From a virus (taxonomy: Duplodnaviria; Heunggongvirae; Uroviricota; Caudoviricetes), in the IMG/VR virus record IMGVR_UViG_2671180770_000015: 15,874 nucleotides of DNA; one strand, given 5' to 3'. The translations under genes were made by a program, and so were the position numbers. Numbering within the stretch: position 1 is the first letter of the stretch; each line of letters begins with the position of its first letter. Shown here piece by piece: positions 698-15,874 of this stretch. The notes under the pieces are model-generated. The model had not been told where the DNA came from. It ran no database searches and saw nothing but the letters and a program-made list of their open reading frames with translations.

Positions 698-1273
698 CTA
701 CGGCAGTGCTGGCCATTCAATATCCTGTGCAGTTGACGTATCAACACGGTTCAGCAATACCCGATACTTTTTCCATGCTTCCAGCAACGAGATTTCTTCC
801 TCCGTTGCAATTTCCAGATCTGCAGCATCCTGAAGCGGCGCAATATGCTCACTGGCTACCTGCATCAGGTTGTTTTTTGTTTCTTCCGCCTCCCGGATCC
901 GGAACAGTTTTTCTGCTTCCGTATCCTTCACCCAAGCTGTGCCGTTCCACTTCTGAAACTCCCCTTTCGGCGATAACCAGGTAACATTTTCCGGTAACGG
1001 ACCGAGTTCAGAAATAAATAACGCGTCGCCGGAAGCCACGTCATAGACGGTTTTTCCCCGATGATCTTCAACGAGATGCCACGATGCCTCATCACTGTTG
1101 AAAACAGCCACGAAGCCTGCCGGAATATCTGGCGGTGCAATATCGGTACTGTTTGCTGGCAGACCTGTATGAGGCGGAATATATGCGTCACCTTCACCAA
1201 TAAATTCATTAGTTCCGGCCAGCAGATTATAAATTTTTATGGTCCGTGCTTGTTCACTCATTCTGAATGCCAT
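698..1273 (-). CDS. tfa: Tail fibre assembly protein Tfa (lambda Tfa-like chaperone)
   Basis: 191-aa [42 protein letters not shown]..., near-identical to lambda Tfa as recalled. Its start codon overlaps the stf stop (TAATG at 1271-1275). Confidence 0.93.
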
Positions 1274-4236
1274 TATGCAAGCCTCACAATATAGTTAAAT
1301 GCGATGTTTTTGACGGTGTTTTCCGCGTTACCAGCAGCGTTAACGGTGATGGTGTGTCCATGTGAACCAATCGCAACGGAGTGCGTATGAGCACCAATAC
1401 TGACAGTATGTGCATGTGCGCCTGCGCTTGCAGCAGTGCCGGACAGCGAGTGGGTATGAGCACCATCTGATGATGTCTTCCCTGCATTACGAGTCTGGCC
1501 ACTACCGCTTGTTGTGCTCATAATCCCCGCGCTTAGATTTGAAATCGCGGTATAACCATTAGGGAAAATGCTCGTGTTCGTGCCACCAAATGCACCGGAA
1601 CTCTTGTGTTGGTGCGCACCGGCACTATTTGCAGTCCCGCTAATACTATGGGTATGCGCCCCGGTGTTATTCGTGGATTTGGTTCCGTAATCAAACGACG
1701 ATGTGTTTTTCGTCCCCAAATCCGTACTGGATGCGCTGGCGCTGTGGGTGTGCGATTTAATGCCGTCCTGTTCCTGAGACAATACGGCACGACCACTGGC
1801 GGGTTTGCCCTTAATCGTCCAGCCACGCATATCAGGGAGCACGCCTGACGGATAAGCGGCTGCAAGTTTCGGGTATGCAGATTTGTCAAAAGTCTGCCCC
1901 TGCATCAGGGCATAGCCAGACGGAACGGTATCTGATGGCCACGGGATTGGTGCGCCAGGCGGATAAAACTGCTCTGATGGCGTATAGAGTGAATAAACTG
2001 TACCGTCCGTTAACCCTTCCGGCTTATTAGCAGAATATGCTGGTGACGTATGAATCGTCACGCTGGCATTACTGGTATAATCCCATTGAATATTTACACC
2101 AGTCGCATAATTTCCGATTGCAACGTAAATATCGTAAGTATCACCAGATGTATTGACCCAGGCAAAATTTGTAAACCCTGTCGATGTGCGCTGCCATAAA
2201 GCACCAGTAATCCCCTTCGGATTACCATTACCTGCACGCAAAACAAGTTCAGATATACCTGCCTGTTGAGGTGACCCCACGTTAAATCCCGCGCCACCAA
2301 TCAACGTAATTGAAACAACAGAACTCGCCTGTGGCATGGTTACCGTTGCTAATTTGAACCAACCAGCACCACCACTGAATGACATTGTTGTTGAGTTAAG
2401 CGTACCAATATCTTTCGGCGTCAGTGTTATATCAGCTGAAAGCGCCTTACCATTCACCTTACGGGCAGAAGGTACCCGACCATTCGCATTATCATTAGCT
2501 GCTTTCACTGCTTTCGGTGTCGCAGCAAGCGTTTCAGATGCGCTGTTGGTTGCACTACTGAGCTGGACAATTCCTTTTTGTGTTGTCGTAGAGTCCTGAG
2601 CAGTATATTTCCCGTTAGCAAGGTCATAGGCTGCCTTTACCGACTTTGGCGTTGCCGCCAGCATTTCAGATGTGCTGTTGGTCGCGTTGCTAAGCTGAAC
2701 TATCCCTTTCTGTGCTGTCGTTGCATCCTGTGCGGTGTATTTCCCGTTAGCCAGCTCATACGCGGCCTTAACGGCTTTTGGCGTTGCCGCCAGTGACTCG
2801 GAAGTGCTGTTAGTCGCACTGCTGAGCTGTACTATCCCCTTTTTCGTCGTGCTCGCATCCTCAAGCGCCACGGCGGATGCAATATCCTCTGCCCGTTTTG
2901 CCGCTGTCTCGGCGCGCGTTGCCGCGGATTCCGCCGTACTTTTGCTCTGAGCTGCCGCCGTCGCACTGCCAGCTGCCTCTGTCGCCTTCGTGGATGCCGT
3001 CGTGGCGCTGCCCTTTGCTGCTGACGCCTGTCTGGTCGCCTCATCTTTTGAAGCAGACGCAGATGATGCCGATGACGCCGCCGAACTGGCGGACGATGCG
3101 GCAGCCGTTTTTGAGGATTCTGCGCTGGTTTCCGACGCTTTCGCGTTCGTCTCGGATGTCTTCGCTGCGGAAGCAGACCTCGCTGCTGCGCTGGCCTGTT
3201 CAGTGGCTTCGCCAGCCTTCGTTGTGGCTGTTGAAGCGGACGATGCGGCGCTTTCTGCCGATTTTCCGGCGGCGCTAGCACTGGCTGAGGCCTGCCCGGC
3301 ACTTGTTGACGCTGCACTGGCAGACGACGCAGCCGCTGTTTTTGAGCCTGCCGCAGCTGAGGCACTCTGTTCCGCTGCCGTTTCAGAAGACCTGGCGTTT
3401 GTCTCAGACGTCTTTGCCGCCTTCGCGGAATTGCCTGCCGCCGTTGCCGAGGAAGCGGCACTACTGGCGCTTGATGATGCGTTCGTTTCTGATGATTTCG
3501 CTGCCTCTTTTGAGGCCGCCGCATCCCGGGCTGAGGTGGCAGCTTCTGACGCCTTCGTGGTCGCGGCGGATGCAGAAGTAGCTGCTGATTGTTGTGACGC
3601 TGCCGCATTCGTTTCTGACGTTTTCGCCGCAGCGGCACTGGTAGCTGCCGCGCTTTTTGAGGACTCTGCAGCAGCAGCACTTTTCGATGCTTCACTGGCC
3701 TTTGTTGATGCCGTTCCTGCGCTGGAAGATGCTGACTGAGCAGATGATGCAGCCTGTCCGGCTGACGTGCTGGCGGCACGAGCTGAGCCTGCAGCATCGG
3801 TTGCATGAGTTGCCGCCTCACTGGCAGATGTGCTGGCATCACTGGCTGACTTCTTCGCGGCTGCCATGTTCTGTGCCACTGCGGACGCGTTACGCGCCAC
3901 CTCTTCCACCATCAGTTCAAAACGTCGCAGAGCCTCCGGACGGGCATCATCCTCCGTCATAGCACCGAGAAAATCATTCAGCGTACCGGGTCGGGAATCT
4001 TCATACACGGTGATGGTCCCGGCATGTGACGGCGGGAATCCTTCCACCAACAGAATAACGCTGTACTGACCGTACTCAACGTCCATGCTGTAACGCCCGG
4101 CTTCATCCGGATTTTCTGAGGCCAGCGTGTTCACCACCACCGCTGTGCTGTTACGTTTTGCTTTCAGCTGGATTGTGCAGTTCTGTACCGGTTTTCCTGT
4201 GCCGTCTTTCAGTACACCTGAAATCTTTACTGCCAT
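1273..4236 (-). CDS. stf: Side tail fibre protein Stf (lambda Stf-like), intact
   Basis: The ORF is 989 aa from a GTG at 4242; the likely true start is the ATG at 4236 ([26 protein letters not shown]...), matching the lambda Stf N-terminus. It has a long Ala/Ser-rich region, three tandem tail-fibre repeats, a His-rich GAHxH region and the C-terminus ...[11 protein letters not shown]. Confidence 0.93.
2476..2871 (-). repeat. Three tandem copies of a ~132-bp (44-aa) phage tail-fibre repeat inside stf
   Basis: Protein repeats ...KGIVQLS(S/N)ATNS(T/A)SE(S/M/T)LAATPK(A/S)VKAA... occur three times, with matching DNA periodicity around 2476-2871. Confidence 0.75.
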
Positions 4237-4247
4237 ATTCACCCCAC

Positions 4248-4300: not shown

Positions 4301-4561
4301 TCAGAACTTATAACCGACACCCACGATGAAACCGTCAGTGCGCCAGTCACCACTGCCGGAGCCTTCATAAGCAATATCAATGGCCACGGATTCGGTCGGG
4401 TTAAACTGCACGCCAGCTCCCCACGCCAGAGACGTGTTGCTGTGGCGACCGTCATCACTTCCGGTCAGCACGTCGTGCGTTTTCCCCTTGTTGTCAGTTA
4501 CGCGGAGATAATCCCCGGAGAAAGTCGACACACGGCTGTAAGCCATACCGATATGCTCCAC
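4301..4561 (-). pseudogene. lom: Lom outer-membrane protein (Ail/Lom family), 3' fragment only (~80 C-terminal residues, no signal peptide)
   Basis: Translation ...SLAWGAGVQFNPTESVAIDIAYEGSGSGDWRTDGFIVGVGYKF matches the lambda Lom C-terminal beta-barrel strands; the N-terminal ~120 residues are absent. Confidence 0.85.
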
Positions 4562-5390: not shown

Positions 5391-5548
5391 ACCTGGTTAT
5401 CTCCCGCAACGGTATTCCCGGCAACCTGCCGGGTGGCAACCGAGACCGCTTTCTGTGCCACACGGTTTATCGCCCATGCGCTGGCCTGTGGCACCATATG
5501 GGTATCAAGGCTGTTCAGATTGCGGATGGCATTCTCAAGCCCCTTCAT
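5351..5548 (-). pseudogene. Tail completion protein (lambda gpZ-like), N-terminal ~45-residue stub running out of frame into the tape measure remnant
   Basis: MKGLENAIRNLNSLDTHMVPQASAWAINRVAQ resembles the lambda gpZ N-terminus (MAIKGLEQAVENL...AMAINRVAS); similarity is lost after about residue 44 and the ORF terminates inside the tape-measure frame. Confidence 0.6.
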
Positions 5549-5559
5549 CCCACACCTCT

Positions 5560-5835
5560 TTACTCAATAAAGATCATTGGCTTACCATTAAAACGTTCAT
5601 GCCGTGTGACCGTCCATTGTTGTCCGTCATAAACAACGCGATCCCCGCGCCGTGGGCGGTATCCCGAAGAAAACACCACCAGAGAGACCGCAGGTCCGGA
5701 CAGAGCATTCAGCTCTGCCAGTGTTTCTCCCGGGATCACAGTCATATCGACATCATTAATCGAGGCTGTCTTTCCCATCTTTCTGACCGTGATAGCATCC
5801 ATACGCGCTGCCAGCCGGGAAAAGGGAGCAGACAT
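5560..5835 (-). CDS. Head-tail joining protein (lambda FII-like)
   Basis: 91-aa ORF; the pattern ...RRGDRVVYDGQQWTV... resembles lambda FII (...LRRGDTLTIGEENFWVDRV), and the gene sits between head and tail genes. Confidence 0.55.
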   Translation of the reverse strand: MSAPFSRLAARMDAITVRKMGKTASINDVDMTVIPGETLAELNALSGPAVSLVVFSSGYRPRRGDRVVYDGQQWTVTRHERFNGKPMIFIE

Positions 5836-6151
5836 TGAGTTTTACCGGCACTTCTTCTGCACTGGTTCCGGCATCTGCCCAGACAACCCCGACCAGCGGA
5901 TCAGAGCCGCTGTTAGTCAGCTGAACTTTTCCGGACTTCAGATAAACCTTCTTACCCGTTTTCATGTCATCCGTTTTCAGCTTAGGCAGCATAAACACAC
6001 CTTCGGTCATGCCGTCGCCTGTTTCACCCTGTGGAATATTGGTCAGCGCCACCGCAAAAACATCACCCACCTGCACCAGATCTCCGCTGCTGATGGCTGC
6101 ACTGGCAACAATCGCCACCGTTTTTCCTTCTTCTACAAAATTCTTTGCCAT
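5756..6151 (-). CDS. Phage head protein, DUF2190-like (putative capsid cement/decoration protein)
   Basis: The ORF track starts at 6196; the likely start is the ATG at 6151, preceded by GGAG (MAKNFVEEGKTVAIVASAAISSGDLVQVGDVFAVA...). Family assignment is from recalled sequence pattern and position immediately after the capsid gene. Confidence 0.5.
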   Translation of the reverse strand: MAKNFVEEGKTVAIVASAAISSGDLVQVGDVFAVALTNIPQGETGDGMTEGVFMLPKLKTDDMKTGKKVYLKSGKVQLTNSGSDPLVGVVWADAGTSAEEVPVKLNVCSLFPAGSAYGCYHGQKDGKDSLD

Positions 6152-6194: not shown

Positions 6195-6214
6195 AAAAAA
6201 AGCCCTTACGGGCC
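6195..6214 (-). terminator. Putative weak intrinsic terminator just downstream of the capsid gene
   Basis: Minus-strand GGCCCGTAAGGGC hairpin followed by seven T (complement of the A-run at 6195-6201). Confidence 0.4.
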
Positions 6215-6237: not shown

Positions 6238-8199
6238 TTACGCCGTACATTTCACCAGACCGCGGTGATCAACTGGCGCGACACCGGCGTCAATACGCAC
6301 TTTCGTTGTCACGCCATCCACACTGAAGCCCTCCATCTGATCAATATATGGCGTATCCACACCGTTGAGATAAGCCACTTCAATCGTATCGGAGCCTTTT
6401 GACGCAGCCAGGTAGAAGGTGGTCTGGCTGTTATCATCAAGACGAGGCTCTGCAATAACGGTCGCAAAATCTTTCACCGGGTTAATAATACCGGCGTTAA
6501 TGTCAGCCCCCTTGACACTTGAGGAGCGAATGACCTGGTTAGCAACAGACTCCATCGCCGTCGGTACCAGTACGAACGCAGGACGAATATTCAGATGACG
6601 CTCCCCCTCTTTCTGAACGCGCATCAACTGGCGGGCTTTATCCAGCGATGCCACGTCCATTGCAGCGCTCTCCAGTACGTTTGCATGTTTCGCTTTATCG
6701 AACAGACTTACATTATCTGTGGAGATTTTCGGGTTAGACGTCAGAATGGCATAAACCAGATCGGCAATAGTGGATTTCGCCGCACGGCCCAGTTTCATCG
6801 GGACATCGGTCAGCATATTCAGATCATCATTGATAATGGCCTGACGGGTGATACTGAACAGCTCGCCATAGGTCGCCAGTGCAATAGTGGCCTGTTTATC
6901 TCCGGTGGTGACGTATTTATATTCCGCCCCTTCACGCACCTGACGCAGAGCACTGAAGCCCCCCATACCCACACGATGGGCAATTTTAAAATCAGACAAC
7001 TGACCTTTCCGCGTCCACTGTTCATAGGTTTCAGGGGCATCTTCCCAGCCCTGCAGAATGGCTTTGTTCGCAACATCCAGCAGAATATTACCGAAGTCAG
7101 ACGTACTGTGTGTGAACGCCGCACCGACCATCTGCATCGGGTTATAACTGGAAACCCCAATACCCCGTTCAGTCAGTGACATACGGGCATATTCACGCAG
7201 GGTCATCCCGTTGTAGACATTATCACGTTCGGTTTTTTCAAATCCGGCACGCGCCATCAGCGCCTGGCGGATCCCGTCCCCCACAAAATTACCGTTACCG
7301 GCATAAATATGAGCCGGGGTATTTTTATTGGATGGCGTGGACTCGTGCCCCATCTCGTTCAACAGCTTTTCGCGGGCCTGCTCCAGCGAACATTCAGGAT
7401 CGGCAAGACACTGAGCCTGCAGCGACTGATAACGCCCGCCAAACATGGCAAACAGATCATTAATACCGTTTACACGCGCTTTTTGCTCTGCCAGGACCTG
7501 CGCACGGATGCTGTTTTCATCCACCACGGGTGCTGCTGCTGCCTGCACTGGCGTCCGGGAGGCTGCAGGTTCATCATCCTGTACGCGTGGAGCACTGTTG
7601 CGTGGCGGAGTAATCATGTTTCGAATGGATTCCGGCATCTTTTTAAATTCCTCTGTACGTTTTGACTGAATACATGCCATTGCCTTAACGGCTGGCGTTA
7701 CCTGATCAGCAAATCCATGTGCCAGACATTCGGCACCGGACATCCAGGTCTCATCCACCAGCATGGCAGCAATTTCATCGGTGGTTTTCCCGGTTTTCTG
7801 TGCATAAGCGGGTAACAGAACCGCCTCAACCTTATCGAGCAGGTCGGCATAGGTGCGCATGTCCTCCGCATCACCGCCCGTAAAGCCAAATGGTTTATGA
7901 ATCATCATGAAGGTGTTTTCCGGCATAATGACCGGGTTTCCCACCATCGCAATGACCGACGCCATTGACGCCGCCACACCGTCGACATAAACGGTAATGG
8001 ACGCACCATGTGTTTTCAGCGCATTAAAAATGGCGATGCCTTCAAAGACATCGCCACCCGGTGAATTAATATGGAGATTAATGTGGGTGATATCGCCCAG
8101 TGCATTCAGATCACTGATAAACTGCTTCGCTGTAACACCCCAGAAACCAATCTCGTCATAAATATAAATATCCGCGTCACTCTGGTGACCAGCCTGCAT
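6238..8199 (-). CDS. Prohead protease (ClpP/S14 family) fused to HK97-fold major capsid protein
   Basis: Single open frame 6238-8460. The N-terminal part has the ClpP-like motifs IYIYDEIGFWG and INSPGGDVFEGIAIFNAL; the C-terminal ~400 aa look like a major capsid protein. The likely start is the ATG at 8199 (MQAGHQSDADIYIY...); an alternative ATG at 8331 cannot be excluded. Confidence 0.8.
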   Translation of the reverse strand: MQAGHQSDADIYIYDEIGFWGVTAKQFISDLNALGDITHINLHINSPGGDVFEGIAIFNALKTHGASITVYVDGVAASMASVIAMVGNPVIMPENTFMMIHKPFGFTGGDAEDMRTYADLLDKVEAVLLPAYAQKTGKTTDEIAAMLVDETWMSGAECLAHGFADQVTPAVKAMACIQSKRTEEFKKMPESIRNMITPPRNSAPRVQDDEPAASRTPVQAAAAPVVDENSIRAQVLAEQKARVNGINDLFAMFGGRYQSLQAQCLADPECSLEQAREKLLNEMGHESTPSNKNTPAHIYAGNGNFVGDGIRQALMARAGFEKTERDNVYNGMTLREYARMSLTERGIGVSSYNPMQMVGAAFTHSTSDFGNILLDVANKAILQGWEDAPETYEQWTRKGQLSDFKIAHRVGMGGFSALRQVREGAEYKYVTTGDKQATIALATYGELFSITRQAIINDDLNMLTDVPMKLGRAAKSTIADLVYAILTSNPKISTDNVSLFDKAKHANVLESAAMDVASLDKARQLMRVQKEGERHLNIRPAFVLVPTAMESVANQVIRSSSVKGADINAGIINPVKDFATVIAEPRLDDNSQTTFYLAASKGSDTIEVAYLNGVDTPYIDQMEGFSVDGVTTKVRIDAGVAPVDHRGLVKCTA

Positions 8200-8335
8200 C
8201 CTGAACCAGGAATTATTCTTCGGACTGGTCGTCGGTGTGCTGCGGCTCCTGTCGTTTCGTTGCGGCACTGCTGCCTCCTTTATCACTGGCCGGATCGGTA
8301 TCAAATACCAGATCCAGCTTGCGGTTTTCATCAAT

Positions 8336-9154
8336 TTAGGCCTTGCGCCGACGTTTGACATCATCCGGATTACGACCACCAGCACGTACCCAGTCTGATT
8401 CTGTCGCCGCTCCACCACGAATCTGGATTTTCCAGGCCTCAGCCTCCTTAACAGGGTCAATCCACGGCATCACCGGTCCGGAATACACCGCGGTATACAG
8501 TGAAGAACGGTCAAGATCGCGGGGTAGCCTGATAACACCGGATGCCACAGCCTGTTTCAGCCAGGCACGATACATCGGGCGGGTGACGGCACCAATAAAC
8601 CAGTCCTGCAGGATCAGGTAGCCATCAGTAGACTCAACCAGTTCCTGACGCTGCGCGCTGTAAGTGCCGTTATAGTTGCGTGCCGTACTGGAAAAACTCA
8701 GACGACTGCCCGCCGCCACGGCACGCAACTGACCATTACGAAAAGTTTCAAGGTTAGGATTGGGACGATCCGACTTCACCATTCCGATTTCTTCGCCGGG
8801 TTTCAGATCGTCGTAAATAATGCCTGGCTGAATGGTAAGCTCGCGTTCATTCTCCTTGCTGCCATTACCATCCGGTTCATAGCTCTGCCCGTCGCCTTTC
8901 CGGATGTACATCCCCAGAGCAGCGGCGATCCTTGCTGCAGTCAGCTCAGAATCTTCATACTCTTTCAGAGCACTGAGGCGGATCAGCACACCGGACAACA
9001 AAGACGTCCCGCGCATCTGGTGCAGACGGCGAACAAATTTAAGATGCAGCATTCGCTCTGCATCCACTTCTTTGGTTTCCATCTGCCGCCCGGATACGGG
9101 ACGGCTTTTATACACCAGATATTTTTCGGGACACCCCCAGTCATCAACAAACAC
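8336..9154 (-). pseudogene. Portal protein (lambda gpB-like), C-terminal ~270 residues only
   Basis: Translation ...YSAQRQELVESTDGYLILQDWFIGAVTRPMYRAWLKQAVASGVIRLP... resembles the lambda B C-terminal half (...YSSARASANESWRYF...EEALLRGIIRPP); the N-terminal half is missing. Confidence 0.7.
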
Positions 9155-9186: not shown

Positions 9187-10578
9187 TCAGCTGGCCGGAT
9201 CAATTCGCTGGCTCTCCCCGTCGCTGTCACCGCGCAATGACTGCGTGATGTTGTAACGATCAATAATCCAGCGTTCGCCACGGCTGCCATAGCCCGTTAC
9301 CTGAACCACAAAACGGCGATGACGTCCCGCCTGCACATCCACTGTCGCCACAAGGAAATTAACGCCATCCGGCACACTGCGGGAAGGAACTGGCTCTGCC
9401 CGCTGCTCAAGCAATTCACTTTTTCGTTGCTCCATGCTGGCGCGGGGAAGATAAGGTAATCCCCAGTCGGTATTGATAACCGTCTTGAGTGTCTCTTCAC
9501 TTCCGGTTGTCTCGTATTCCTGTTCTGCAGTAAGCAGTTTGTAAACGAGTTGCGAGAGTGTCTGATAAGCAGCTGCCGGACCCTCCATCCAGAATGACGC
9601 AATACGTGAACGCCGGGGATCACCATAACGACTGCCATCTGCATTGATGGATTCACCATCCCGTAACCAGACCCCACGTCCGTTCAGCTCGCGTTTTTGT
9701 TCAGGCAAAATCCGTCCTGAACAGGAAGGACACTGAATATAAGCCGCCTCACTTGCCAGCACAGGATCGGCAATATCACGGAAACCAGCAACCACATCGC
9801 CGCAGGGCTGAAAATACTCACCACAGTGTGGACAGGGCCAGTACCAGCGACGGCGATCGCCACGGTTATAGAGCGACAGGATCCCCGTGGTTGGTGGAGC
9901 CTCATGCGGTGAAGTCCGTCGCCATTTCACATCCTTCACATCCCTGCCGGGGGAACTCTCCACAAGCGTCATACCACTGGACATAAATGTGGTGGTACGT
10001 TTTGAGGCAAGAGAGAAGGCATCCCCCTCACCATCAATATCTTCCGGAAAACGGTCATAATCCGTCAGCGCCACGCATTTATAATCTGATGAAGACATGA
10101 TATTGACTGACGGCCAGCCGATTTTCAGGTAGTTGCCAGCAAGGAATGTTCTGTCATAAACGTTGTTGTCATTTTTGTTCGGACTCAGGCGACTGACCAC
10201 TTCCGGGCTGACGCGAAACGTTCTGGCGAGTCGTTTTTTGGAGTGTTCGCGGGCTTTTTCCTCCGTCATCTGAATGATCAGCATATCAGCAGGATCGCAA
10301 ATCACGTTGTAAATCACCCAGCCGTCAATCAGGCCGATAGTCTTGCCGGTTCGTGCCGGGCCAACAAATATCACTGCGTCGTATTCACGCGAGGCCAGGC
10401 AGTTCATCGGCTCAATAACATACGGTGCCACCAGCGGATCCCACGGGACTGAGTTCCCTGCCCCCATGGGCACCCGCATATACTGAGCAACGGCATCAGC
10501 AACCCGCATTCGTCTCGGTGCGCGAAGGATATAACCTGAATCGGTTCGTGCTGCCTTTGCGGTTTCCTGATTCAGCAT
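9187..10578 (-). pseudogene. Terminase large subunit (lambda gpA-like), truncated to 463 aa (lambda gpA is ~640 aa)
   Basis: WYWPCPHCGEYFQ matches the lambda gpA FHVACPHCGEEQY region, and the ORF ends at ...WIIDRYNIT..., equivalent to about gpA residue 480. The downstream sequence is portal-derived, not terminase. The start overlaps the terminase small subunit stop (ATGA). Confidence 0.8.
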
Positions 10579-11438: not shown

Positions 11439-11606
11439 ATGCGAACCATAAATGCCTCATCTTCAGCAATGCAGCCGGCATCCGAACAGGACGATATTGT
11501 AAATTCACCTAATTACGAGGACATTGCAGTAGTTGAATTGCAGCTCTGTATTAGCCTGACAGTGACAGAATGCGACATTGACTCTGTCACAGGTGAAATA
11601 GTTTGA
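11439..11606 (+). CDS. Hypothetical small protein (55 aa), not in the ORF track
   Basis: ATG at 11439 preceded by GAGGGG at about 7 nt spacing; translation MRTINASSSAMQPASEQDDIVNSPNYEDIAVVELQLCISLTVTECDIDSVTGEIV; no family recognised. Confidence 0.3.
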   Translation: MRTINASSSAMQPASEQDDIVNSPNYEDIAVVELQLCISLTVTECDIDSVTGEIV

Positions 11607-11626
11607 ATGATTAGCAGTTATGGTGC

Positions 11627-11833
11627 TCAGTCAACCACCAGGGAATAATCCTTCGAATTCTTATCGTGCTTCACCAACGCTGCCTCAATTGCCCTGAATG
11701 CTTCCAGAGACACCTGATGTTCTATACATGCAATTACAACATCCGGGTAACTCATAGAAATGGTGCTATTAAGCATATTTTTTACACGAATCAGATCCAA
11801 CGAGAGTTCATCAGCAGATTGTTCTTTATTCAT
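11627..11833 (-). CDS. Small prophage protein, YbcW/YnfO-like (68 aa)
   Basis: 68-aa [60 protein letters not shown]...; recalled similarity to small proteins found beside Nu1 homologues in K-12 cryptic prophages. Confidence 0.5.
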
Positions 11834-12133
11834 TTTGTCGCTCCATGCGTTTGCTCGTCATCTAGCGGTTAAAATATTACTTCAAATCTTTCTGCATAAA
11901 AGAGGAAAAGTATGAAAGTTTGAGTACATCGACCTTACATACATCTGTCGGTTGCATATCCCTCCTGGATGCCAGCAAGGCTCAACTTTGTTACGCAATC
12001 AACACTATTCATTAAAAACAGGCTTAATATTTGACATAAATCATCAACAAAACACAAAGAGGTCAGACCAGATTGAAACAATAAACACGATAATGCAAAC
12101 TACGCGCCATCGTATCACATGGAAGGTTTGCCA

Positions 12134-12544
12134 ATGGCTCAGGCTGCCATTTTTAAAGAAATATTCGATCAAGTGCGTAAAGATTTAAACTGTGAATTAT
12201 TTTATTCTGAGCTAAAACGTCACAATGTCTCACTTTATATTTACTATTTAGCCACAGATAATATTCACATTGTGTTAGAAAACGACAACATAGTGTTAGT
12301 AAAAGGACTCAAAAAGGTTGTAAATGTTAAATTCTCCAGAAACAAACATCTTATAGAGACCTCCTATAATAAGTTGAAATCAAAAGAAATCACATTTCAA
12401 CAATACAGGGAAAATCTTGCTAAACCAGGAGTTTTCCGATGGGTTACAAATATCCAGGAACACCAAAGATATTACTATGCCTTTGATAACTCATTACTAT
12501 TTACTGAAAGCATCCAGAAAACTACACAGATCTTACTACGCTAA
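12134..12544 (+). CDS. ydfO: DUF1398-family prophage protein (YdfO/YbcV-like), 136 aa from the second Met
   Basis: The ORF track starts at 12119; the ATG at 12134 ([11 protein letters not shown]...) is preceded by GGAAGG. Assignment is from length and synteny with the Qin cspI-gnsB-ydfO cluster, not a sequence match I can verify. Confidence 0.45.
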
Positions 12545-12644
12545 ACCATAACGTCCGACTTCTCTCACTCCTGAGCCGGACTGCATTGGTTTAATAAAAA
12601 CCATCAACAATTGTGATTTAGATATTCGGAACCATTCAAATATA

Positions 12645-12685
12645 ACAAAACCCCGTAAAAACGAGGTTTATGGATAAATTTTATT
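12645..12685. terminator. Bidirectional hairpin between convergent ydfO-like and gnsB-like genes
   Basis: AACCCCG-taaaaa-CGAGGTT hairpin at 12649-12668 with T-rich flanks on both strands. Confidence 0.4.
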
Positions 12686-12868
12686 ATTGAATACATCAGA
12701 TTAAATTAATCTTGACATCATAGCTTTCAAGACCCGTCATTTTTTCCCGTGCGGTAAACTGAATACTGGTAACTTCTTTCCCGGTCTTTTTCTTAAGTTC
12801 AATAATTTTTTTGTTATATATTCAGAAATATCTGCTTCTGCTTTTGTTTTTAAGTCTTCAATATTCAT
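12686..12868 (-). pseudogene. gnsB: GnsA/GnsB-family small protein gene, disrupted by a frameshift in a homopolymer run
   Basis: Minus-strand start MNIEDLKTKAEADISEYITKK, then after a 7-base A-run (plus-strand T-run at 12806-12812) the GnsA/B-like sequence IIELKKKTGKEVTSIQFTAREKMTGLESYDVKINLI continues in another frame. The frame is restored by a single-base insertion in this run (8 A instead of 7). Confidence 0.6.
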
Positions 12869-13038
12869 CATTTCCTCTTTTAGTCTGTTATGACTTTCCA
12901 GTTAGACAGTAAGTCGATTATATGGTGCAAACGTGTAAAAGATAAGATGAAACATCGCAATAATCAACATACGATAGTCTAAATTTTACACAAACAGACA
13001 AAGAGAATTTCCCGAATTATCAATGCAATAGCATCAAA

Positions 13039-13230
13039 TCAACTCAAGAGCCTTATTGCTGCTTCCAGAATTTCTTCTGAAGTAACATGTCGATCCGCGG
13101 CTACATAAATGACTTTATGATCTCCGGTCAGAGATGGAAACCCTGCGGCCATTACAGTAAGGTGTGTTTTTTCGCCATTTGGATATTCACGCATGATGGT
13201 GTTAACTCCAGTCATCGCTGGCACTACCAC
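13039..13230 (-). CDS. Hypothetical protein (63-aa ORF; possibly a longer protein interrupted by a homopolymer frameshift)
   Basis: ORF MVVPAMTGVNTIMREYPNGEKTHLTVMAAGFPSLTGDHKVIYVAADRHVTSEEILEAAIRLLS from a GTG start. Upstream, an ATG at 13270 (MKKIIVFF) would join this frame if the 9-base A-run at 13246-13254 (on the + strand) were 8 bases. Confidence 0.4.
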   Translation of the reverse strand: MVVPAMTGVNTIMREYPNGEKTHLTVMAAGFPSLTGDHKVIYVAADRHVTSEEILEAAIRLLS

Positions 13231-13312
13231 TGCTGGTTCAGAGTTAAAAAAAAACTATGATTTTTTTCATGATGTTACCGTAGTATGTGAGTATCCATCG
13301 AATAGACACCAA

Positions 13313-13352
13313 GCAAAAAAGCTCCCGAAGGAGCCTTCATTTTCACTTTTTT
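13313..13352. terminator. Intrinsic terminator (bidirectional hairpin) downstream of the cold-shock gene
   Basis: GCTCC-cgaa-GGAGC at 13321-13334, flanked by AAAAAA (13315-13320) and T-rich sequence; gives a U-tract on the minus strand. Confidence 0.65.
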
Positions 13353-13541
13353 AAATCCAACGACAGACGGCTGGCATTTAAGTATTGTGAAATATTATCA
13401 AATGTAATCATCATTGATTTACAAAAGATACATTTTGCCCCGAAAGGATTCATGTCAGAAACATCAAAAGATGATGTTCTATACTGGGAACCATGACAAC
13501 ACGGGCATCTAAAGTGAATATGGTTTGTAATATTGTCTACC

Positions 13542-15672: not shown

Positions 15673-15774
15673 AGCCTCACCTCCGCACGGAACGGATGGC
15701 ATAGTTATTATGTGTAGGCTTCCAGACACATCAATCAGAACCTTAATTGATATATATGCTGGAGACGATGCAAT

Positions 15775-15874
15775 GGCTTTGTTGAATAAATCGAACTTTT
15801 GCTGAGTTGAAGGATCAGATCACGCATCCTCCCGACAACACAGACCATTCCGTGGCAAAGCAAAAGTTCAGAAT
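15775..15874 (+). mobile_element. Partial IS903-group (IS5 family) insertion sequence, terminal 100 bp only; element body would continue beyond the right window edge
   Basis: Begins GGCTTTGTTGAATAAATCGAACTTTTGCTGAGTTGAAGGATCAGATCACGCATC..., which I recall as the IS903 end including its terminal inverted repeat; exact inverted copy of 1-100. Confidence 0.7.

Follow-up and report, generated by a model that had tools for sequence, protein, structure and literature searches.

The gene at positions 6238 to 8268 on the minus strand of the analyzed DNA (a stretch of 15,874 nucleotides, referred to here as the window) appears to be an intact tripartite capsid gene of the Gifsy-2 type, which occurs in lambdoid and related siphophages, a reading to which we assign a probability of about 0.93. 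Fused protease-scaffold-capsid genes of this type are already known, Salmonella phage Gifsy-2 being where they were studied first, and the gene is ordinary in that respect. Effantin et al. reportedly described the tripartite capsid gene of Gifsy-2 in Virology in 2010. The encoded protein scored 983.2 bits against NCBIfam NF045540 (scaf_prot_MCP1), a curated family of fusions between a ClpP-like prohead protease and a major capsid protein, for which the cut-off is 475, with the match extending over profile positions 2 to 651 of 652. It also matched PHROG 133 and was identical over 676 of 676 residues to RefSeq protein WP_001583540.1. Among 5426 complete E. coli genomes, 2236 carry the gene, and the ClpP-plus-capsid architecture recurs in 84 of the 148 nearest 50%-identity representatives. 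The gene has little discovery value: its family is curated (NF045540), occurs in about 40% of complete E. coli genomes, and has been on record since 2010. The practical gains are that the gene start and the domain boundaries are fixed and that the Pro/Ala stretch can be read as a probable variable tether.

Gene start and domains of the fusion protein

The first-pass annotation placed protease and capsid in one uninterrupted frame encoding a polypeptide of 650 to 740 amino acids. The list of open reading frames does contain an uninterrupted 740-codon frame on the minus strand (8460 to 6238), and profiles located both domains within this single frame. By our arithmetic, the random chance of a stop-free run of this length is about 1e-15, at about 3/64 stops per codon. 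The single chain therefore stood, but the upper length did not; the protein has 676 amino acids, and the upstream 64 codons are portal region. The gene and its ribosome-binding site are as follows.

6238..8268, minus strand: complete fusion gene (prohead protease, linker, scaffold-like helices, major capsid protein), 676 amino acids plus TAA stop
8274..8281, minus strand: Shine-Dalgarno sequence AAAGGAGG (contains AAGGAGG), read directly from the sequence, 5 nt before the GTG

The best start is the GTG at 8268-8266, the codon from which RefSeq annotates the identical gene as well. From this start the fusion gene overlaps the stop of an intact portal gene (TAA at 8215-8213) by 56 nt. The first 192 nt (5') of the 740-codon frame fall within the 3' part of the portal gene, which is read in a different frame, and lie outside the fusion gene. 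Two other starts were ruled out. The TTG at 8460 (740 amino acids) lies inside the portal gene, in a region that no profile covers. The ATG at 8199 (653 amino acids) has a weak ribosome-binding site, is preceded by residues that are conserved in alignments (K17, S20, W21, F22, and R23), and is replaced by Ile in Gifsy-2 and MD8.

The fusion protein can be divided into the following regions.

7684..8178, minus strand: ClpP-like (peptidase S14) protease domain, residues 31-195; Pfam PF00574 CLP_protease, E=1e-35
7594..7683, minus strand: conserved junction segment AMACIQSKRTEEFKKMPESIRNMITPPRNS, residues 196-225; 83-100% identity across 20 aligned homologues
7522..7593, minus strand: hypervariable Pro/Ala/Thr/Gln-rich linker, residues 226-249
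7339..7521, minus strand: conserved segment of predicted helices, residues 250-310; scaffold candidate akin to the HK97 delta domain
6241..7338, minus strand: major capsid protein region, residues 311-676

The protease forms the N-terminal third of the protein, and the Pfam match bears out the ClpP-like motifs that had been noticed there. The domain scored 213.9 bits against NF045542 (head maturation protease; cut-off 120) and matched ClpP chains in the PDB (best E=5.5e-16), in alignments that paired the catalytic motifs. The catalytic residues Ser101 and His124 were present in all 69 family representatives (35-59% identity), and position 173, the ClpP Asp position, was acidic in 63 of the 69. 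That the third catalytic residue aligns as Glu instead of Asp here is a feature that counts against the best explanation. Scores fell far below the ClpP equivalog cut-offs (TIGR00493, 58 bits versus 309; NF011091, 58 bits versus 361). Judged from these sequence comparisons, the domain has the ClpP fold and catalytic motifs yet is not a ClpP orthologue. The only protease-family matches in Pfam were to ClpP-fold serine protease families (CLP_protease, SDH_protease, and NfeD1b_N), all within the fusion frame, and neither the open reading frames of the window nor the gene context revealed a separate protease gene between the portal and capsid genes.

The middle region between protease and capsid (residues 196-327) runs from the junction through the linker and three predicted helices into a disordered stretch, and corresponds to the middle region of about 130 residues, a putative scaffold, that is typical of NF045540. 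The first-pass annotation suggested that the Pro/Ala-rich linker acts as the scaffold. The linker is present (residues 226-249), but its identity in homologues is only 8-54%, except in the nearly identical P0004, and indels of as many as about 15 residues change its length. No other part of the protein is less conserved; the segments on either side are mostly 80-100% identical. Because it is so variable in sequence and length, the Pro/Ala stretch is unlikely to be a scaffold and is probably a flexible tether. A better candidate for a scaffold resembling the HK97 delta domain is the segment of residues 250-310. AlphaFold2 predicted helices at 251-274, 281-289, and 295-308 (pLDDT about 80-89), and the segment is conserved in alignments. 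It lies within the matches to NF045541 and to the phage LPPA33 protein, both of which are without a ClpP domain, and thus stays with the capsid domain where relatives carry another domain at the N terminus.

The capsid part matched Pfam Phage_capsid_4 (E=2e-54). Sequence searches of the capsid half against solved structures gave weak matches only (JBD30 capsid, E=3e-4), and a comparison of folds was therefore needed. A model of residues 290-676 based on just 21 sequences of 73% identity or more had a mean pLDDT of 31.5 and was discarded; modeling succeeded after relatives with 41-52% identity were added from a profile search. The profile searches and the structure model both support a C-terminal HK97 fold, which starts at about residue 328, in the same polypeptide as the protease, as is typical of NF045540. 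Thus, profile searches did not place the C-terminal half in a noncapsid family, an outcome that would have spoken against the proposed fusion. Disorder is predicted for residues 310-325, where the maturation cleavage site may lie.

Proposed assembly and a possible internal start at codon 211

We infer the processing of the fusion protein and its cleavage site by analogy with the Gifsy-2, HK97, and lambda systems. A T=7 procapsid would be built on the portal from full-length chains, whose protease and helical parts would point to the interior. As these parts belong to the full-length chains, every coat subunit would bring its own scaffold and protease. The enclosed proteases would then remove everything N-terminal of the capsid domain, cutting probably in the disordered stretch at about 310-327. 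The fragments would leave, the shell would expand during DNA packaging, and trimers of the cement protein, the product of the next gene, would bind and stabilize it. According to our rough estimate, if each of about 415 subunits kept about 330 N-terminal residues, the interior of the procapsid would be roughly half filled with protein. Literature searches found no experiments on the fusion protein or its 99%-identical phage copies and gave nothing useful on capsid proteomics or processing in mEp460 and its relatives.

One alternative is a nested gene like lambda C/Nu3, in which translation from an internal start at Met211 would yield a protease-free scaffold-capsid protein of 466 amino acids, so that only a minority of subunits would carry the protease. 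The packing estimate favors fewer protease copies. A GAGGA lies 10-11 nt before the in-frame ATG at codon 211, and the spacer between them is rich in A/T. In relatives with identities as low as 57% (1720a-02, mEp213, Gifsy-2, and MD8), the Met is conserved and a GAGGA/AGGAG likewise precedes it. However, the GAGGA encodes the conserved Glu-Glu-Phe motif, and its conservation thus needs no extra explanation. Its distance from the ATG is among the longer ones for a ribosome-binding site, Met occupies the position in only 5 of the 69 representatives of the wider family, and no experimental hint of such a start was found. We therefore regard the internal start as unlikely. If it were true, a single gene would set the ratio of protease to coat through translation, and a nested gene would be hidden within it.

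A capsid gene among decayed neighbors

The sequences on either side of the fusion gene include the following features.

6195..6214, minus strand: terminator-like hairpin GGCCC-GTAA-GGGC(T), then T run; stem-loop 6214-6201, T run to 6195, 24 nt past the stop codon
6165..6183, minus strand: second hairpin CAGCCCC-TGAAC-GGGGCTG, found by folding, just upstream of the next gene's ribosome-binding site
5756..6151, minus strand: head decoration ("cement") protein gene; Pfam PF09956 Phage_cement_2, E=4e-20; PHROG 122 head decoration
8336..9154, minus strand: portal gene remnant; Pfam PF05136 matches only profile positions 158-354
9187..10578, minus strand: terminase large-subunit remnant, 463 of about 700 amino acids, with the nuclease domain cut short

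The portal remnant (PF05136) upstream and the cement gene (PF09956, PHROG 122) downstream constitute the head-module context expected for NF045540. The putative terminator hairpin that the first-pass annotation had placed after the gene was recovered by a consensus scan and by folding. Equivalent hairpins with U runs follow the gene in Gifsy-2, MD8, and LPPA33, where the position is kept and the sequence differs, and the counterpart in mEp213 is annotated as a rho-independent terminator. The stem is short, at 5 bp, and the intergenic region as a whole shows no exceptional folding (z = -1.9). The hairpin is most likely a partial terminator or a 3' mRNA-stabilizing element that raises expression of the capsid gene relative to the downstream genes of the late operon. 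At the site of the second hairpin, Gifsy-2 has a hairpin of another sequence.

The observation that the fusion gene is the only large structural gene besides stf to appear intact was also upheld. The portal gene has lost its N-terminal part to a deletion with its junction at 9189 and carries a nonsense change (GAA to TAA at 8338); an intact gene would end at 8213. In the terminase remnant, Pfam GpA_ATPase is complete, but GpA_nuclease is represented only by positions 1-116 of 294. The terminase lesion involves a deletion of 1454 bp relative to intact prophages. The tape-measure gene is truncated, and most other tail genes are deleted. The stop codon of the cement gene has been lost (TGA to TGC at 5830-5828, adding 24 amino acids relative to intact prophage L001). 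IS5-family ends flank the region, and an IS5-family element separates the late operon from upstream sequences. The arrangement of the window was not present as one contiguous match among the 5426 complete E. coli genomes. The locus is a dead, IS-flanked remnant of a Qin-like prophage in which the fusion gene is a relic. No functional head can come from the window, which has lost the portal, part of the terminase, and nearly all tail genes. Thus, the intact capsid gene should not be taken as evidence of an inducible phage.

It might be proposed that the host has kept the gene for a new role: its product might form capsid-like compartments, interfere with incoming phages, or assist a satellite. 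This would explain why the fusion gene alone is intact beside decayed neighbors. Five differences from L001 were found over 3.8 kb, 2 of which inactivate or alter neighbors, and none fell within the 2031-nt fusion gene. However, the probability of zero of five by chance is about 0.02 by our arithmetic, and the count is biased in that L001 was selected for being the best match. At 99.9% identity, the decay is evidently recent, and an intact gene is therefore expected by chance. In addition, the IS element cuts the operon off from the upstream promoter region, and the same deletions were found in none of the 5426 E. coli genomes, giving no sign of a maintained lineage. A host role is thus very improbable.

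Although its neighbors do carry lesions (the cement stop loss and the portal nonsense change), the notion that the fusion is an artefact of adjacent protease and capsid genes fused through a frameshift or the loss of a stop codon in a decayed prophage is refuted by the uninterrupted gene in mEp460, Tritos, LLS, Gifsy-2, and the 2236 E. coli genomes, by the 100% identical RefSeq protein, and by the architecture that the 84 representatives share. The gene is best regarded as a Gifsy-2-type capsid gene that remains intact in a dead prophage.

Comparison with other head systems

In HK97, the protease gp4 is encoded by a separate gene and belongs to a different family that is not ClpP-like, and the delta domain is fused to the capsid protein gp5. 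The HK97 capsid is stabilized by covalent cross-links rather than by a cement protein. In contrast, the protease here is fused and a cement gene lies downstream; no separate gp4-family protease gene was found beside the capsid gene.

The lambda C/Nu3/E plus gpD system resembles the one predicted here in its lambdoid T=7 head, in having protease and scaffold in one frame, and in its trimeric stabilizing decoration protein. Here, too, the portal is a lambda-family protein (PF05136) and the terminase a gpA-type enzyme. Lambda differs in that its protease and scaffold (C and the nested Nu3) are apart from the capsid gene E and in that its protease is not ClpP-like. The fusion protein gave no Pfam match to the lambda E or S49 families, and the traits of a lambda-type head module were not found.

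Proteins of NF045541 (scaf_prot_MCP2), such as the 662-amino-acid protein of Pseudomonas phage LPPA33, share the helical segment and the capsid domain but have a different, non-ClpP N-terminal domain. The LPPA33 protein has 33% identity over residues about 250-673 of the window protein, which scored 399 bits against NF045541, below the cut-off of 525. Gene order is the same in LPPA33, Gifsy-2, MD8, mEp213, and 1720a-02: terminase large subunit, small gene, portal, fusion gene, and cement gene, followed by a head-tail or hypothetical gene.

The closest phage counterparts are the genes of E. coli phages mEp460, Tritos, cdtI, Ayreon, and phi458, which are 98.7-99.3% identical. These copies reside in complete head-tail modules, whereas the window copy is in a decayed prophage. 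The Salmonella phage Gifsy-2 gene STM1034.3n has 70% identity over 97% of its length and the same architecture of ClpP-like protease, middle region, and major capsid protein. Its description as a fused protease/coat gene dates from 2010, as cited in PMC12315714. The Gifsy-2 capsid has T=7 symmetry (PMC8814770), and decoration protein trimers occupy its 3-fold axes (PMC8538268). Within the family, the literature records autoprocessing to the mature coat protein and T=7 shell formation for Gifsy-2 only. Gifsy-2 also has the same neighbors, an overlapping portal gene upstream and a homologous downstream gene of about 107 amino acids that is the cement protein gene here. The two genes differ in their N-terminal leader and linker sequences, and Gifsy-2 is an inducible phage, whereas the window copy belongs to a defective E. 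coli prophage.

Extent and domain content of the fusion gene

Sequence comparison places the fusion gene at 6238-8268 on the minus strand, with a predicted product of 676 aa. The first-pass annotation had allowed up to 740 aa, the length of the open frame that runs from 8460 to 6238 on the minus strand, but codons 1 to 64 of that frame fall within the 3' end of the portal gene, which is read in another frame. The start was assigned from the annotation of intact relatives, in which the portal stop is equivalent to window position 8213 and the start of the next gene to 8268; from the GTG at 8268, which AAAGGAGG precedes by 5 nt; from the identity of the resulting product to RefSeq WP_001583540.1 (676/676 residues); and from the poor case for ATG 8199, which has a weak ribosome-binding site, lies downstream of conserved residues, and encodes a Met that is Ile in Gifsy-2 and phage MD8.

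Features of the fusion gene (residues of the 676-aa product) and its 3' flank
Residues 1-30: variable leader with a conserved SW(F/Y) motif at its end
Residues 31-195: ClpP-like domain
Residues 196-225 (window 7594-7683): strongly conserved junction
Residues 226-249: Pro/Ala/Thr/Gln-rich stretch, least conserved (8-54% identity versus mostly 80-100% in its flanks)
Residues 250-310: conserved helical segment, predicted helices 251-274, 281-289, and 295-308
Residues 310-325: predicted disordered stretch
Residues about 328-676: HK97 fold in the predicted structure
6214-6201, minus strand: terminator-like hairpin after the fusion gene, T run to 6195
6183-6165, minus strand: second hairpin, ahead of the cement gene ribosome-binding site

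The observation that a ClpP-like protease and a capsid protein share one frame was confirmed. Pfam CLP_protease matched the N-terminal third of the protein (E=1e-35) and Phage_capsid_4 its C-terminal half (E=2e-54), whereas PHROG 133 spans the entire protein, and the NCBIfam family NF045540 (scaf_prot_MCP1) matched over its full profile with 983 bits against a cut-off of 475. The NCBIfam domain for ClpP-related head maturation proteases scored 214 bits against a cut-off of 120, but the protein fell far under the NCBIfam cut-offs for genuine ClpP equivalogs. Among solved structures, the protease part aligned with ClpP chains (best E=5.5e-16) such that the Ser (AASMAS) and His (MIHKP) motifs matched up. 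All 69 wider-family representatives (35-59% identity) have Ser101 and His124, and 63 of them have an acidic residue (Glu or Asp) at position 173, the counterpart of the ClpP Asp.

The gene stands in a conserved order: terminase small subunit (DUF1441), terminase large subunit, a small gene, portal, fusion gene, cement protein (PF09956, PHROG 122), and a gene of a Gifsy-2 family (PF13856) that PHROGs label minor tail protein. The terminator hairpin proposed after the fusion gene is present, with its T run, at 6214-6195. At the equivalent place, a G+C-rich hairpin with a U-rich tract occurs in Gifsy-2, MD8, and LPPA33, although the sequences differ, and the authors of the mEp213 record annotated theirs as a rho-independent terminator. 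Since the late operon continues downstream with genes required for the virion, we infer that the hairpin terminates transcription only in part or stabilizes the 3' end of the RNA, and does not stop transcription altogether.

Capsid fold and candidate scaffold

Assignment of the C-terminal half to a non-capsid family had been set beforehand as the refuting result, and no such family was found with the Pfam profile or with Foldseek on a predicted model. By sequence, the only link to solved structures was a weak match to the phage JBD30 capsid (E=3e-4), and prediction from a shallow alignment gave a low pLDDT of 31.5. A model of residues 250-676 built from 71 sequences of 41-100% identity reached a mean pLDDT of 78.5 and a pTM of 0.67. 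Foldseek returned 250 PDB matches at E<=0.001 for this model, and all 50 of those listed were encapsulins or phage major capsid proteins. The low-confidence part of the model, residues 426-461, is probably the E-loop.

The Pro/Ala-rich linker had been proposed as the scaffold. However, it is the least conserved part of the chain, and its length differs by up to about 15 residues between homologues; it behaves as a tether. The conserved helical segment is the scaffold candidate instead, in an arrangement as expected for a delta-domain-like scaffold joined to the coat protein. This segment also accompanies the capsid domain where relatives have a non-ClpP-like domain at the N-terminus. For example, the match to NF045541 (scaf_prot_MCP2) begins at residue 222 (286 in 740-codon numbering) and that to phage LPPA33 at residue 251. 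With length, start, and scaffold candidate corrected in this way, the interpretation of the gene as a protease-capsid fusion is supported. Across 20 aligned homologues, the junction that connects protease domain and linker (AMACIQSKRTEEFKKMPESIRNMITPPRNS) keeps 83-100% identity, and its Pro212 is retained in 64 of the 69 wider-family representatives.

The analysis demonstrates domain content, catalytic residues, fold, and synteny; head assembly is proposed by homology to Gifsy-2, HK97, and lambda. Full-length chains and portal would co-assemble into a procapsid, with the covalently joined helices serving as scaffold and the tethered proteases brought inside, one per subunit. The proteases would then cut, probably somewhere in residues 310-327, and remove all that lies N-terminal to the capsid domain. 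DNA packaging would expand the shell, which the cement protein would stabilize by binding. A GAGGA located 10-11 nt before Met211, and conserved as far as MD8, hints at an internal start there that would give a protease-free product; the case is weakened because this motif encodes conserved residues and because Met at position 211 is rare in the wider family (5/69 representatives).

An intact gene in a decayed prophage

The fusion gene is an intact relic within a dead prophage. In the 3.8 kb around it, the window differs from a near-identical intact prophage at five positions, none inside the gene, and the high identity to live copies points to recent decay rather than selection. Three deletions set the window apart from an intact Qin-like prophage; their junctions lie at 4543-4549, 5391-5393, and 9189 (overlaps of 7, 3, and 1 nt). 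The first two removed lom', J, I, K, L, M, most of the tape-measure gene, T, G, V, U, and part of Z, in pieces of about 6.2 kb (lom' to M) and about 4.5 kb (tape measure to Z'). The third, of 1454 bp, runs from the C-terminus of the terminase through a small gene into the N-terminus of the portal. None of the 5426 complete E. coli genomes has this arrangement as a single contiguous match. Of the five differences from the near-identical prophage, one is a nonsense change in the portal remnant (GAA>TAA at 8336-8338), 41 codons ahead of the normal stop and inside the 64 upstream codons of the 740-codon frame, and another abolishes the stop of the cement gene (TGA>TGC at 5828-5830), adding 24 aa and running into the next gene.

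The window begins and ends in a perfect 100-nt inverted repeat (1-100 and 15775-15874, ending GGCTTTGTTGAATAAATCG) that matches the termini of IS5-family (IS903-like) elements, for which annotations exist on numerous E. coli chromosomes and plasmids. One IS copy thus stands at either end of the 15.7-kb remnant, in opposite orientations, and the whole could form a composite-transposon-like or invertible segment. The left copy interrupts the invertase gene pinQ (101-600), with homology to intact pinQ starting at 101. The right copy sits upstream of the holin gene essD, at a distance of about 100 nt (about 15673-15774), and separates the late operon from its upstream promoter region.

The 989-aa side-tail-fibre gene stf (1273-4242) contains three tandem 132-nt repeats at 2480-2875, 62-73% identical to the reference copy, and three stretches that match the Pfam Phage_fiber_2 repeat. 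Between the terminase and lysis genes, 11500-13500 is A+T-rich (33-39% G+C versus about 52% in the head genes); by position it is the counterpart of the Qin cargo region (gnsB, ynfN, cspI, and others) of intact relatives.

Comparison with known protease-capsid fusions

The 4-kb region around the fusion gene matches 2236 of the 5426 complete E. coli genomes, with an identical annotated product name. The family is mosaic: some E. coli copies combine a protease and scaffold half of the window type with a capsid half of the Stx-phage type, and others the reverse. When three such homologues (P0070, P0074, and P0079) are aligned to residues of about 345-400 in the window protein, the change from one type to the other falls close to where scaffold and capsid meet. 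When residues 250-676 were searched against 1.84 billion cluster representatives, 10,625 relatives came up at E<=0.001. Among the nearest 148, the N-terminal region was ClpP-like in 84, another long region in 35, and little or nothing in 29.

Protease-capsid fusions are an already known gene type, on record since 2010 work cited in PMC12315714. Protein identity is 98.7-99.3% in phages mEp460, Tritos, cdtI, Ayreon, and phi458, about 76% in Stx-converting phages, 73% in mEp213 and LLS, whose heads are also of the fused kind (PMC12315714), and 71.5% in Fels-1. It is 57% in Pseudomonas phages F10 and MD8, and the MD8 record labels the homologue "protease and major capsid protein." Gifsy-2, at 70% identity, has a T=7 capsid (PMC8814770) whose 3-fold axes carry a trimeric decoration protein (PMC8538268).
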